Positions 939 through 4,348 of a DNA stretch of 64,000 bases are shown here, piece after piece. The stretch lies in the IMG/VR virus record IMGVR_UViG_2788500396_000001, positions 859 to 64,858 of that record; one strand, written 5' to 3'. Position 1 is the stretch's first letter. The number at the start of each line of letters is the position of its first letter. This DNA comes from a virus. Lineage: Duplodnaviria > Heunggongvirae > Uroviricota > Caudoviricetes. Made by a program: the position numbers and the translations under genes. The notes under the pieces were generated by a model. The model saw only the letters and a list, made by a program, of their open reading frames with translations. It did no database searches and was not told the DNA's origin.

Positions 939-3900
939 TATCCACAATGAGAATAGCCGCACTCTGGGCAGACATCACATCCGCCTTCAAACCGGAGTTG
1001 AGCTCCACATTCTGGACATTTCGAAGGACTATCATTGTGATTTGTTTTTGTGTTGTTTGCTTTTTTTGCGGCTGGATCACTGACAACCTCTGGTGCTTCT
1101 TCAGTGTCATCGCCGTAAAGATAAACTGCCTTTTTCTTCATTTCTTCAAGTGCTTTGCCAATTGCGGATGGGCAAGAAGTTCCAGGTGAAGTGTCACCTT
1201 TTGATTTTGTGCGAGCAAGATATGCATTACAAGGACGAATGCTATATGCTTGATCAATAATGGCTTCCAGCGGAACACCAGCACGCAAAGCAAGAGACAT
1301 GAGCCGAGAAATAAACTGGAGATTCCGCTCACACCCTCCGCCAGATCCAATATCGATGTACGTCTCTAAAAATTCAAGAGAGGTTTCATCAAAATCGACA
1401 TGCAGATAAAATTTACCGCACCCATTGATGATTGTCTTCTTGATTGACATCAAGTCATCATCAACACCAATGATCATACCTCTGTTAAGACAGTCGGTAC
1501 ATGTATCGTTCTTCTGTTCATTTTTCTTTGGTGCAGTGTCTCCGGTGGTGAGAATAGCCTCACGCTTACAACCAGAACGGAAGATAGTCAATCCCTTAGT
1601 ACCTTGTTTCCATGCTTCAATATAGATACGGGCCATATCGTCCTCAGATGCGGCTTCAGGAAGATTGACAGTAGAACTGATGGCAGTATCGATATGCTTC
1701 TGGATAACAGCCTGAGTTTTGACACGGCGAATGGGGTCAATGTCGGCGGAAGACACAAACCATTCTGGAAGGACTCCATCACACTCAGGATGAGAGGAAA
1801 GATATTCTCTGGCAGCCTTGCAGTAGACGGTGTAATAATGGTCTTCATTGTCGGTAAGGCCAACAGTTCGTCTTGTATATGAGATGGCAAATTCAGGTTC
1901 AATTCCGCCTGACTCTCCGAGCATGGTTGCAATAGATCCGGTCGGTGCGATTGAGAGCAGGCTACAGTTACGAAGGCCTATCGATCTGAGATCACTAATA
2001 GCACCATTCCCAAAGTGATTTAAGATGATATTGCTGTTAAAAATCTGATCACGATACCCTGGGAATGTTCCAAGCTTTTTTGCCTCTTGTGAAGAAGAGC
2101 GAACGGCAGTAACAAACATATATGAGAACAGATCATCAGAAAAACGAATTGCATCATCGGAGCCGTATTGCAGTCCAAGCTTCATGAGCATAGTTGCATA
2201 TCCCATAACTCCAAGCCCGCAATTTCTAAACTCTAACGCCATCTTTTTCTGTTGCGGAAGTGCATGTCTGTTTGCATTGAAGTCAACAATCTTATCGAGA
2301 TATTGGATTCCAAGCATAACAGCCGCTTCAAAGGCATCAAAATCAAAACCAGCATCGTTTGTGTAGGGGTTAACAACAAACTCAGACAGGTTGATTGCGG
2401 CCAAATTGCATGCACCGTGTTTCGGAAGAGGTTGTTCCCCACAAGGGTTACACGATTCAATCTGATAATTGTCACAGAATTCCATCAGATTGTAATTTCT
2501 GAATTTATCAACAAAAAGACATCCAGGGTCTCCCCACTCATAGTTGTTATGGATAAACGCCTTAAATACTTCAATAGGAGTGACTTCCCATTCAATTTCA
2601 TGTCCGCTATAGGACTCTTTTCTGGTGATGGTTTTTGTTTCTCCACGTTCATAGTATGCTTGTACGCACTCCATAAACTCATTGTCAATTTCCAAACTTA
2701 GGTTTGCTTTTTCAATTAAACCTTCTTCAGACTTAATAGTGATGAAATTCATAACTTCTTTGTGCCAAGCATCAAGGCTCATAAGGAGAGCGCCTTTACG
2801 AGAATTGGACACATAAATGCCATTGCAGAAAAATTTATGTTCATCGGCAACTTCGATATCGTATACATGACGAATCCCAATATATTCAATATTTGAAATT
2901 TCATCAAGAATCATTGGAGCATACGGCTTATCTTTTACTTGTAGGTATGTGTATAGACCAATATTTGTATTTTTGCTAATTTTAGCCAAATGTTTTGCAT
3001 CATTTTTAGACAAGCCCGTGTTCTTCATTGTGTATGGAGTTACATATTTGCTGTTTTTAGCATAAGGAACATGGGTTTTAGCTACTTTATAGCTATAATA
3101 CGTTAAAATGTCATCTCTAATGGAATCGGATACCCGATAAATTGGTCGCTTATTGTTTTCGTTTTCTCTATAGTTTACGCTTATAGTTGGGAATAATCCA
3201 ACTCTCTTCATTAACAGAGAGATTTGTTCGGCGTATGCTTCACAAATAGTATCGCAACAGATGGAATTTCTACGCACACTACCATCGCTGTCTATTGCGC
3301 CGCCGACAAAAGAAAGAACACAATCATCGTCTCCGTTTAGAACCCAATCTGGAACTCTAATATAACTACAAGTGTCCTTTTTTACTTGTTTTTTAATCCA
3401 CTTGCATACTGGCACTGTTAGAACAATCCTGATTGCATCTTCATCTTCTCTGTTGTTGTAATAGGCATTAAACCCCAAAGAGGATAGATATGAAATTAGT
3501 TTGTCGCCAACTTCTTTGTATTTTTTGTGCATGGTAATATTCCCAGTGTTGTCTTTCCTGATATAGCCATTTGCTAAAAAATGAGCAAAGAAATAGGCTT
3601 TTTCGTTAAGTTCTTTCTTTATATTGTTTGGTTGTGATGTGATTAAGCAAATTTTATCTCCAATATTCAAAGAAGACAACGGAGATACGTTAAATCCATC
3701 AACACAATATTTGTGGTCAATAGTGGTAGAAATAGTATATCCTTTTTTGGTTGTTACTTTATATGTTTCTTGTTCACCTTTATCCCATACAGTTAGCACG
3801 GGTTTATATCCTGCTTTTGTATAGACATTATCACCAACTTCGATATCTTTGATAGGCTTATATCCTTCAGATGTTAAAACAAGCTCATTTTCTTCAATAC

Positions 3901-4348
3901 ACCCACCTTGGGAAGTCCCTTGTGTAACCTCGTTATAAATCTTCATAAAAGGGACAATGCCATCTGATTCGTAATTATCACCAATGGGTGTTCCTTTAGG
4001 GCGCAACTTGCTTAAACTTAGACCTTGACCACCTTGAGACTTAAAGGTTTTCCCAATATCAACAGCAGCTTGCATAATATCATTATAGTCGTCTTCGATA
4101 AAACCACGGCTATAACAATTTGACATTCCGCATGAGTCATCATCAATGCCGACGTTGCTTAAAATGCGGCCTCCAGGAATAAGCATTTTAAGTTCAATGA
4201 GACGTCTATAAGCCGGATTCCCTAAACTGACTCTATCAAGCCACGCATCAAAGGTTTCTTCATTCTTCTGATACTTTTTGTGCCAAATGTCTTGCCCAAG
4301 CTTGTTATCTTTACCGAGCCATTCCTCAACAGTGTGTATATCGTTCAA
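938..4348 (-). CDS. nrdJ: class II (adenosylcobalamin-dependent) ribonucleotide reductase NrdJ, intein-containing
   Basis: 1136 aa. RNR motifs NCYSRGF and the QGG...RKGALM active-site finger, which is split by the intein. C-terminal CxxC-x-CxxC zinc ribbon. TTG start preceded by AGAAGGAGA. Confidence 0.88.
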   Translation of the reverse strand: MNDIHTVEEWLGKDNKLGQDIWHKKYQKNEETFDAWLDRVSLGNPAYRRLIELKMLIPGGRILSNVGIDDDSCGMSNCYSRGFIEDDYNDIMQAAVDIGKTFKSQGGQGLSLSKLRPKGTPIGDNYESDGIVPFMKIYNEVTQGTSQGGCIEENELVLTSEGYKPIKDIEVGDNVYTKAGYKPVLTVWDKGEQETYKVTTKKGYTISTTIDHKYCVDGFNVSPLSSLNIGDKICLITSQPNNIKKELNEKAYFFAHFLANGYIRKDNTGNITMHKKYKEVGDKLISYLSSLGFNAYYNNREDEDAIRIVLTVPVCKWIKKQVKKDTCSYIRVPDWVLNGDDDCVLSFVGGAIDSDGSVRRNSICCDTICEAYAEQISLLMKRVGLFPTISVNYRENENNKRPIYRVSDSIRDDILTYYSYKVAKTHVPYAKNSKYVTPYTMKNTGLSKNDAKHLAKISKNTNIGLYTYLQVKDKPYAPMILDEISNIEYIGIRHVYDIEVADEHKFFCNGIYVSNSRKGALLMSLDAWHKEVMNFITIKSEEGLIEKANLSLEIDNEFMECVQAYYERGETKTITRKESYSGHEIEWEVTPIEVFKAFIHNNYEWGDPGCLFVDKFRNYNLMEFCDNYQIESCNPCGEQPLPKHGACNLAAINLSEFVVNPYTNDAGFDFDAFEAAVMLGIQYLDKIVDFNANRHALPQQKKMALEFRNCGLGVMGYATMLMKLGLQYGSDDAIRFSDDLFSYMFVTAVRSSSQEAKKLGTFPGYRDQIFNSNIILNHFGNGAISDLRSIGLRNCSLLSIAPTGSIATMLGESGGIEPEFAISYTRRTVGLTDNEDHYYTVYCKAAREYLSSHPECDGVLPEWFVSSADIDPIRRVKTQAVIQKHIDTAISSTVNLPEAASEDDMARIYIEAWKQGTKGLTIFRSGCKREAILTTGDTAPKKNEQKNDTCTDCLNRGMIIGVDDDLMSIKKTIINGCGKFYLHVDFDETSLEFLETYIDIGSGGGCERNLQFISRLMSLALRAGVPLEAIIDQAYSIRPCNAYLARTKSKGDTSPGTSCPSAIGKALEEMKKKAVYLYGDDTEEAPEVVSDPAAKKANNTKTNHNDSPSKCPECGAQLRFEGGCDVCPECGYSHCG
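2804..3901 (-). mobile_element. intein with LAGLIDADG homing-endonuclease domain inserted in the NrdJ GG/RKGAL motif (366 aa, residues 150-515)
   Basis: Starts CIEENELVLT (block A, Cys1). LAGLIDADG-like LSFVGGAIDSDGSV. Ends NGIYVSN followed by extein Ser. Removing it restores the conserved QGG-SRKGALLM. Confidence 0.75.

Follow-up and report, generated by a model that had tools for sequence, protein, structure and literature searches.

What is the 366-residue insert in the nrdJ product of this phage, can it leave the protein, and how did it reach its site? The window analysed here is a stretch of 64,000 nucleotides from a Caudoviricetes virus (IMG/VR record IMGVR_UViG_2788500396_000001, positions 859 to 64,858); all features discussed below lie on its minus strand. 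The nrdJ gene (938..4348), delimited with the list of open reading frames and with Pfam and NCBIfam profiles, is an unbroken 3.4-kb reading frame encoding a 1136-aa precursor of a class II B12-dependent ribonucleotide reductase (RNR), which carries a single intein and, at its C-terminus, a TSCPD domain. The precursor matches the Pfam profiles Ribonuc_red_lgC (300 bits) and TSCPD (57 bits), and exceeds the equivalog cut-off of the NCBIfam model TIGR02504, NrdJ_Z (409.9 bits vs 399.95). The best PDB relative, using the intein-free allele P0007 as query, is the NrdJ of T. maritima (1xje, E=1.4e-60). Given the equivalog score, the ten-stranded barrel domain and the NPCGE finger loop, the host protein is, by sequence, a class II NrdJ.

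The insert covers 2804..3901 and corresponds in frame to residues 150-515 of the precursor. Its junctions read EVTQGTSQGG / CIEENELVLT at the N-terminal end and FFCNGIYVSN / SRKGALLMSL at the C-terminal one. An earlier note on this DNA had placed a 366-aa intein beginning with Cys at these coordinates, which are exact to the base, and had given its end as Ser-Asn followed by Ser; the junctions, the Pfam and NCBIfam models and the fold matches bear this out. Its C-extein SRKGALM must be corrected to SRKGALLM. The N-extein (3902..4348; residues 1-149, ending in TSQGG) runs colinear with the first 149 residues of P0007 and P0008, two proteins that lack the intein. In the C-extein, which after its first Ser runs from RKGALLM through the stop codon (938..2800), the match to Ribonuc_red_lgC picks up again at profile position 74, immediately behind the intein. 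Without the 366 residues the protein has 770 aa, is 96% identical to P0007 and P0008, and is colinear with both. The flanks thus rejoin into the conserved motif, which was the alignment check proposed in the earlier note.

That note had assigned the interrupted motif to the RNR finger. This is wrong: NPCGE is the finger loop, which bears the thiyl-radical Cys, and it stands intact within the C-extein (2435..2449). In the alignment with the T. maritima NrdJ, Q147 of the window protein corresponds to Gln203 and the Arg at position +2 to Arg207. In E. coli their equivalents are Gln294 and Arg298, which belong to the allosteric specificity loop, loop 2 (PMC4728125). Judged by this alignment, the insertion cuts loop 2 between the equivalents of Gln294 and Arg298. 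The hosts of nine inteins inserted at the same site were tested, and all (9/9) are RNRs in which the match resumes at PF02867 position 73-75. Among bacterial proteins RNR ranks second in richness of inteins, and at least 13 of its insertion sites have been named (PMC4760082; PMC4071816). PMC4071816 gives the InBase letters of these sites (rir1-a to rir1-m) without positions, and Swithers 2009 lacks the RNR detail.

The insert matches intein and LAGLIDADG models well beyond what chance would give, scoring above their cut-offs (in brackets): Intein_splicing at 41.1 bits (35.8), LAGLIDADG_3 at 46.9 (22.5) and Hom_end at 30.9 (21.1) in Pfam, and intein_Nterm at 31.0 (24.5) and intein_Cterm at 15.7 (15.6) in NCBIfam. 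The AF2 model of the intein is of moderate quality (mean pLDDT 70, pTM 0.60). Confidence is moderate in the HINT part (pLDDT about 60-80) and weak at residues 278-331 and in the last 13 residues, so that the geometry of the C-terminal active site lies outside the reliable part. The best Foldseek matches of the model are the TliVMA, PhoVMA, PI-SceI and PI-PfuI inteins (E=6e-18 to 1e-11). The HINT fold is recovered against both the gp41-1 intein and these whole endonuclease-bearing inteins. These profiles and the model, together with the absence of the segment from the alleles L001 and L002, delimit a splicing domain of the HINT type, which an endonuclease domain of the LAGLIDADG type divides in two. 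On this evidence the insert is a genuine class 1 intein with a nested homing-endonuclease domain, and is predicted to splice.

The intein is patchily present among phage alleles that are 96-97% identical. The syntenic contig L001 has 10 bp in place of window positions 2798..3905, which makes for a clean insertion of 1098 bp, and the metagenomic alleles L001 and L002 both lack exactly this number of nucleotides. The L001-type empty site is ACCTCTCAAGGAGGA / GCAAGAAAAGGAGCTCTC, and the empty-site stretch of L001 reads ACCTCTCAAGGAGGAGCAAGAAAAGGAGCTCTC. Nearly identical phage genomes differ in this respect: some have the site empty, some carry an intein in loop 2 and others one in the finger loop. 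More distant relatives have both a loop 2 intein and an endonuclease gene intervening in the finger loop. A regular expression also pointed to a second loop 2 intein in P0085, but this match is false and lies in the TSCPD domain. The GC content of the intein is 34.1%, against 41-43% in the exteins. Intein alleles share 64% of their amino acids and 69% of their DNA, at which level synonymous sites between them are likely saturated. Searches of 50,697 deposited phage records gave zero matches for the whole gene (megablast) and, for the intein, nothing above 23% full-length identity, the matches being inteins of helicases and terminases (tblastn). Judged by these searches, a close cultured relative is absent from the 50,697 records.

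The N-extein tract adjoining the intein (3902..4123) carries window-specific substitutions in a pattern that resembles co-conversion. The window differs from both L001 and L003 at 77 positions, 42 of which fall in extein nt 226-448, and the clustering of substitutions just upstream of the insert is highly significant (Fisher p=1.6e-18 for the bin nt 181-540). This cluster of ~220 nt is consistent with an intein acquired from a divergent donor, whether through recombination or through homing. The surroundings of the site also diverge between L001 and L003, which both lack the window intein, and the donor was not found, so that the co-conversion reading is suggestive and not proven. We rejected L006 (P0037) as donor of the tract, its identity to the window being merely slightly higher near the site. 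Taken together, the patchy presence of the intein and the divergent tract that flanks it argue for its recent movement.

The domain that might drive this movement spans about residues 98-275 of the intein (3077..3610), with Pfam matches to Hom_end at 110-155 and to LAGLIDADG_3 at 193-260. These profiles and the model agree on a two-motif LAGLIDADG domain. Residues 100-220 are modelled with a pLDDT of 85-95, and the domain matches I-DmoI and I-Tsp061I with TM-scores (target-normalised) of 0.62-0.68 in Foldseek. The LAGLIDADG-type motif reported earlier, FVGGAIDSDGSV, is indeed found at residues 198-209. It contains motif 2 (V199-GGAIDSD-G207; 3281..3307), which has the canonical Asp206; D206 and G207 are invariant. 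Motif 1 (F104-FAHFLAN-G112; 3566..3592), identified from the alignments and the model, has Asn111 at the usual position of the catalytic Asp or Glu. This motif (FFAHFLANG) is absent from the earlier note, yet it is the more unusual of the two, a mild curiosity of this locus. In the model, N111 ends helix 100-111 at its C-terminus in a position equivalent to that of D206 at the end of helix 192-206. Of the acidic metal ligands expected at the penultimate position of each motif, one is thus present (Asp206) and the other is replaced by Asn111. PI-SceI and PI-PfuI have an acidic residue at both LAGLIDADG helix ends. The same is true of I-DmoI (D21/E117; PMC3384342), unlike the window intein with its Asn at the first. 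The acidic residue at this position binds metal and is described as essential for catalysis (PMC3384342).

Because of the Asn in motif 1, it is uncertain whether the endonuclease cuts both strands. It is quite possible, though we do not favour it, that splicing is intact while the enzyme is either inactive, leaving the intein as an immobile passenger, or a nickase of one strand. The window and all its close alleles have the Asn at the penultimate position of motif 1, where the essential metal-binding residue should be, and Asn and Asp alternate there across the wider family of the site. However, the alternation also tells against decay of the enzyme, since the Asn is seen again in distant members that keep the remaining domain, which favours tolerated or functional variation. 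Furthermore, the domain is well conserved among alleles of 46-64% identity, Asp206 never varies, and the distribution of the intein indicates that it moved recently. One could instead see in the Asn the mark of a natural asymmetric homing enzyme, which could nick one strand, or use its single canonical active site, and still drive homing; this might explain why the co-conversion tract is one-sided and only upstream. A separate idea is that the intein, by splitting loop 2 with the specificity Gln on one side and the latch Arg on the other, could serve during infection to switch on dNTP synthesis post-translationally. We regard these two proposals as speculative and unlikely to hold.

The residues typical of class 1 splicing are all in place: Cys1, a block B TxxH, and Asn366 followed by a +1 Ser. 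The Cys1 codon (3899..3901), which specifies the block A nucleophile, is invariant in the alignments A1 and A2. Block B reads T60-I-D-H63 (3713..3724); H63 never varies in either alignment, while T60 is invariant in A1 and nearly so in A2 (at least 90%). Blocks F and G (V346-YDIEVADEHKFFCNGIYVS-N366; 2804..2866) include Asp348, His355, the penultimate Ser365 and the terminal Asn366. Across 11 same-site inteins of 23-64% identity, Y347, D348, H355, Y363, S365 and N366 are invariant, and the same-site alleles at 49-64% identity retain C1, TxxH, D348, H355, S365, N366 and the +1 Ser. The codon of this Ser, the C-extein nucleophile, lies at 2801..2803, where most intein-free alleles encode Ala. 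Among the best 120 NrdJ homologues, the +1 position is Ala in 105, Ser with no intein in 13, and intein-bearing in 1.

The penultimate His of block G (G:6), which is common but not obligatory, is replaced by Ser365. The earlier note called the resulting Ser-Asn non-canonical and expected that such an intein may splice slowly. We grouped the inteins of this RNR site in 18 clusters, independent at ≤50% identity, and counted their representatives: Ser-Asn ends 17 of the 18, and +1 Ser follows in 17 of the 18. The Ser-Asn is therefore not odd but the normal ending at this site, even if two neighbouring loop 2 sites keep His-Asn mostly or always. Slow splicing is not implied either. Splicing by inteins lacking the penultimate His is documented (references in PMC4031507; PMC5050341), and its exchange for Gly, Lys or Ser in phage inteins has been reported, with mixed consequences for the rate (PMC5050341). 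Since the window intein, like nearly all others at the site, has Ser as its penultimate residue, the block F His probably takes over the usual role of the penultimate His, as extrapolated from PMC5050341.

It is very improbable, in the light of these residues, that we are dealing with a decayed intein that no longer splices and an nrdJ pseudogene that never yields an active reductase. The missing penultimate His and the low confidence of the model in the last 13 residues could be read in this way. However, Ser-Asn is the rule at this insertion site, all the nucleophiles and assisting residues are present and invariant in same-site inteins down to 23% identity, the 3.4-kb frame is unbroken, and the exteins remain 96% identical to those of intein-free alleles. 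That the 366 residues are a native, non-excised domain of the NrdJ lineage or an in-frame, read-through group I intron has next to no chance of being right and is refuted by the sequence evidence: the bare in-frame insertion is all that speaks for it, whereas near-identical alleles lack precisely this insert, families and fold alike point to HINT and LAGLIDADG, a native domain would permanently break loop 2 between the equivalents of Gln294 and Arg298, at which Arg298Ala leaves the E. coli RNR essentially inactive (PMC4728125), and positions 1-9000 of the window match no Rfam family at gathering score and hence no group I intron.

Comparison with known systems places the intein among those of the RNR large subunit (InBase RIR1) inserted at QGG / S-R-(R/K)-G-A, which share the host family and the same PF02867 position (73/74). 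Like it, they have Cys1, TxxH, the block F Asp and His, a Ser-Asn end and +1 Ser, and usually a LAGLIDADG domain. The window intein is 23-28% identical to distant members of this group and 46-64% identical to a small group from metagenomic phages. Among solved structures, TliVMA (7QSS), PI-SceI (1VDE), PI-PfuI (1DQ3, from an RNR) and PI-PkoII (2CW7) likewise carry a two-motif LAGLIDADG domain within their HINT domain. A profile of the same-site inteins matches 7QSS (E=2e-29) and 1DQ3 (E=6e-17). An allelic relationship with PI-PfuI was considered and not established: its match covers the endonuclease and C-terminal parts and ranks behind TliVMA. The solved endonuclease-bearing inteins differ in host or site, are 12-18% identical to that of the window and, at 432-537 aa, are larger than its 366 aa; the PhoVMA intein has 361-379.

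By sequence, the HINT part is closest in the PDB to the gp41-1 split intein (E=7e-10); structurally, this match has an rmsd of 2.3 A over 87 columns. NGIYVS of the window aligns with NGFIAS in 4kl6, an Npu-type DnaE chain, so that both have a penultimate Ser. The Npu DnaE intein, which ends in IASN, splices very fast. Unlike the window intein, gp41-1 and the DnaE inteins (Npu/Ssp) are split or mini-inteins, lack an endonuclease and reside in helicases or polymerases. The class 1 inteins of mycobacteriophages that lack the penultimate His are closer in context, being from phages and in hosts of DNA metabolism, although hosts, insertion sites and phage lineages differ (Kelley et al. 2016, PMC5050341). 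In one of them, the case tested, putting the His back made splicing slower (PMC5050341).

In summary, the element is very probably a class 1 intein with a LAGLIDADG domain, inserted in frame in loop 2 of a phage class II RNR; it may derive from a donor together with its upstream tract. The following steps are deduced from the conserved residues and the class 1 splicing pathway (PMC4031507). The 1136-aa precursor would be translated with loop 2 interrupted, the specificity Gln (Q147) lying before the intein and the substrate-latching Arg after it, and for this reason should be unable to act as a reductase. Cys1 and Gly149 would then form a thioester, attack by the +1 Ser would give a branched ester, and cyclisation of Asn366 would free the 366-aa intein; an O-to-N shift would yield the 770-aa NrdJ with its QGG-SRKGA motif restored. 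Thr60 and His63 of block B and Asp348 and His355 of block F would assist. At the DNA level, a divergent donor allele would have supplied the element through recombination or homing, along with ~220 nt of upstream extein and the Ser codon.

Intein biology gains little from one more example, since RNR inteins, phage inteins and inteins lacking the penultimate His were already documented. For annotation, the mature NrdJ should be taken as a protein of 770 aa, and the interrupted element as loop 2 and not the finger loop. Ser-Asn followed by Ser emerges as a near-universal ending signature of this insertion site. Finally, the natural series of alleles could suit the study of homing and co-conversion.

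The insert lies within a single minus-strand ORF (window 938..4348) that encodes a 1136-aa NrdJ precursor, of which it occupies residues 150-515 (window 3901..2804, minus strand). We translated this ORF and located in it the strings quoted in an earlier note made from the sequence alone. The coordinates proposed there (2804-3901) match exactly, and the quoted FVGGAIDSDGSV is present at intein residues 198-209. With a slash marking the point of insertion, the junctions read ...NEVTQGTSQGG/CIEENELVLT...HKFFCNGIYVSN/SRKGALLMSLDAWH; they are as quoted except for the C-extein, which is SRKGALLM and not SRKGALM, the sole transcription slip. 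The host ORF matches Pfam Ribonuc_red_lgC (300 bits) in two stretches divided by the insert, carries a C-terminal TSCPD domain (Pfam), and scores 409.9 against NCBIfam TIGR02504 (NrdJ_Z, adenosylcobalamin-dependent ribonucleotide reductase, RNR; cut-off 399.95). The solved structure nearest to its intein-free form is Thermotoga maritima NrdJ (E=1.4e-60), and the nearest deposited phage NrdJ, that of Bacteroides phage BS-TP1, is just 37% identical. The neighbouring genes encode a dNMP kinase, DHFR, thymidylate synthase, a DNA methyltransferase, a Pnkp/RNA-ligase protein, and dUTPase, and contigs syntenic with the window reach 106 kb. The phage is uncultured, and these genes form a nucleotide-metabolism block in its genome.

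The insert is an intein, as the earlier note had correctly spotted, and an ordinary one of a known kind. Analysed alone, it exceeds the Pfam cut-offs for Intein_splicing (41.1 versus 35.8), LAGLIDADG_3 (46.9 versus 22.5), and Hom_end (30.9 versus 21.1), as well as those of NCBIfam intein_Nterm and, by a narrow margin, intein_Cterm. Its top sequence match in the PDB is the gp41-1 intein (E=7e-10). An AlphaFold2 model built from six same-site sequences has a mean pLDDT of 70, with 85-95 in the endonuclease core and poor values at residues 278-331 and in the final 13 residues. Its top Foldseek matches in the PDB are endonuclease-bearing inteins (TliVMA, PhoVMA, PI-SceI, PI-PfuI; E=6e-18 to 1e-11); in this predicted model, the HINT part resembles gp41-1 (rmsd 2.3 Å) and the inner domain resembles I-DmoI and I-Tsp061I (TM 0.62-0.68). 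The rival reading, a native insertion domain, is refuted by colinear alleles that lack the insert. A search with the spliced 770-aa sequence recovered two metagenomic proteins, P0007 and P0008, each exactly 770 aa long, 96% identical, and reading QGG-ARKGALLM across the site. Two contigs encoding P0008, L001 (106 kb) and L002, share ~95% DNA identity with the window; their alignment to it stops at 3906 and restarts at 2797, and window 2798..3905 is replaced by ten diverged bases, i.e., a clean 1098-bp insertion. No Rfam family, group I introns included, reached its gathering score in window 1-9000.

The interrupted motif had been labelled the RNR finger, a name that belongs to NPCGE, which is intact (window 2435..2449). 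HMMER aligns Q147-G-G/S-R-K-G-A of the window with Q203-G-S-R-R207-R-G-A of T. maritima NrdJ, whose Gln203 and Arg207 correspond to Gln294 and Arg298 of the Escherichia coli enzyme (Zimanyi et al., PMC4728125). These two residues lie in loop 2 (292-301 in E. coli), through which the effector site passes specificity information on to the active site, and the Arg298Ala mutant is essentially inactive (PMC4728125). Because the site maps to this Gln/Arg pair, the intein comes between the specificity Gln and the latch Arg, and we infer that the unspliced precursor is unable to work as a reductase.

The Ser-Asn ending, which had been regarded as non-canonical, is normal for inteins at this point of the protein. 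The nearest relatives of the window intein (P0001-P0004, P0037, P0127-P0131; 37-64% identity) are all inserted there, and all terminate in (V/L)SN/SRKGAL. Junctions were read out for the 150 top-ranking cluster representatives (clustering at 50% identity). Among these, the 18 inteins at QGG/xR(R/K)GA have penultimate Ser in 17 cases and His in one (+1 residue: 17 Ser, 1 Thr). The neighbouring site GQ/SGRRGA holds 42 inteins (penultimate 36 His, 5 Ser, 1 Lys; +1: 36 Ser, 6 Cys), and RR/SA holds 28, all with penultimate His (+1: 26 Ser, 2 Thr). All nine distant hosts checked at the window's site are RNRs, in which the barrel domain restarts at PF02867 position 73-75, as it does in the window. 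Residues C1, H63, D348, H355, S365, and N366, among others, are invariant over 11 same-site inteins (23-64% identity). Ser365 is thus a conserved, lineage-specific trait, not a lesion. Splicing without the penultimate His is already on record (references in PMC4031507); in phage inteins this His can be replaced by Gly, Lys, or Ser, and the block F His has been suggested as its stand-in (PMC5050341). The NGFIAS of a DnaE-type chain (4kl6) also aligns with NGIYVS of the window intein. Slow splicing, which the earlier note had considered possible with this ending, is therefore not implied.

At the position following QGG, 105 of the best 120 NrdJ homologues have Ala and 13 have Ser but no intein; P0037 has Ser together with the intein. 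The intein-free QGG-SRKGA alleles (P0025, P0027, P0029, P0030, P0032, P0033, P0035, P0038, and five others) may be former hosts after precise loss, or ready to accept an intein. With Ala in most alleles and Ser found with the intein or in few empty ones, the +1 Ser nucleophile either comes along with the intein or marks alleles able to accept it.

The sole slightly unusual feature of the intein is in LAGLIDADG motif 1 (FFAHFLANG), and it is shared beyond the window. The penultimate position of the motif, which normally provides a metal-binding Asp or Glu (PMC3384342), is Asn111; motif 2 (VGGAIDSDG) is canonical. In the predicted model, N111 and D206 occupy matching ends of the two LAGLIDADG helices. 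All close alleles keep this Asn, and Asn and Asp alternate over the wider site family, with the domain conserved throughout. The enzyme may be fully active as an endonuclease, act as a nickase, or lack activity.

The locus shows signs of mobility. Occupancy varies between alleles with 96-97% identical exteins: P0007 and P0008 are empty, the window has the loop 2 intein, and P0009 (L003 1111-4491) has a different, 356-aa intein at NP/CGE, with Ser1 at its start and Gly-Asn at its end. This placement makes the thiyl-radical Cys the +1 residue; the window has no intein there. Inteins in RNRs are reported to occur most often at NP/C (PMC2677866). Finger-loop inteins of about 356 aa also occur in P0019, P0020, P0026, P0035, and P0039, the exteins of this group being up to 97% identical to those of the window. 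At 77 positions the window sequence matches neither L001 nor L003. Of these positions, 45 fall in extein nt 181-540 (Fisher p=1.6e-18 for this bin) and 42 in nt 226-448 (window 3902..4123), a stretch directly upstream of the insert that takes in the first base of the +1 codon. It resembles what one-sided co-conversion from a donor of about 75% identity would leave, with the caveat that L001 and L003 likewise diverge there. L006, the contig encoding P0037, was ruled out as donor on comparison with the window, and no donor of the stretch was found. The GC content is 34.1% in the intein and 41-43% in the exteins.

In two contigs with more distant relatives (P0001-P0004), nrdJ carries the loop 2 intein and is broken right after NPC (L004 6001-10253; L005 1163-4764). 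The ~950 nt that intervene code for a 228-aa LAGLIDADG_2 protein; beyond them, the remainder of nrdJ forms an ORF of its own. The break probably reflects either a group I intron or genes in pieces; against Rfam Intron_gpI the sequence reaches only 18.7 bits (E=0.049). The thymidylate synthase of L001 (7327-8964) has 545 aa, versus 276 aa in the window (5382..6212, minus strand). After ...IWDAWA, a 269-aa in-frame insert (CPSTKREIVV...PLDPEYT) takes the place of DENGS; it begins with Cys but does not end in Asn. For this gene, the pre-computed Pfam record gives Thymidylat_synt only, and Rfam reveals no intron in it. The window thyA has 57.6% GC (local windows ≤61%), versus 43.6% for the whole window and 35-45% for its neighbours, and looks compositionally foreign and recently acquired.

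The window also encodes a transposase (40043..41161, minus strand; PHROG 506, E=8e-134) and an integrase-like protein (16528..17751, minus strand), and this genome therefore has mobile elements besides the intein. A Pnkp-like kinase/phosphatase/RNA-ligase fusion (8263..10494, minus strand; PHROG 8238, E=1e-218), a tRNA nucleotidyltransferase (18367..19722, minus strand), and a second nucleotidyltransferase (19697..20773, minus strand) together resemble a set for RNA repair and tRNA maintenance, which suggests a counter-measure to host anticodon nucleases.
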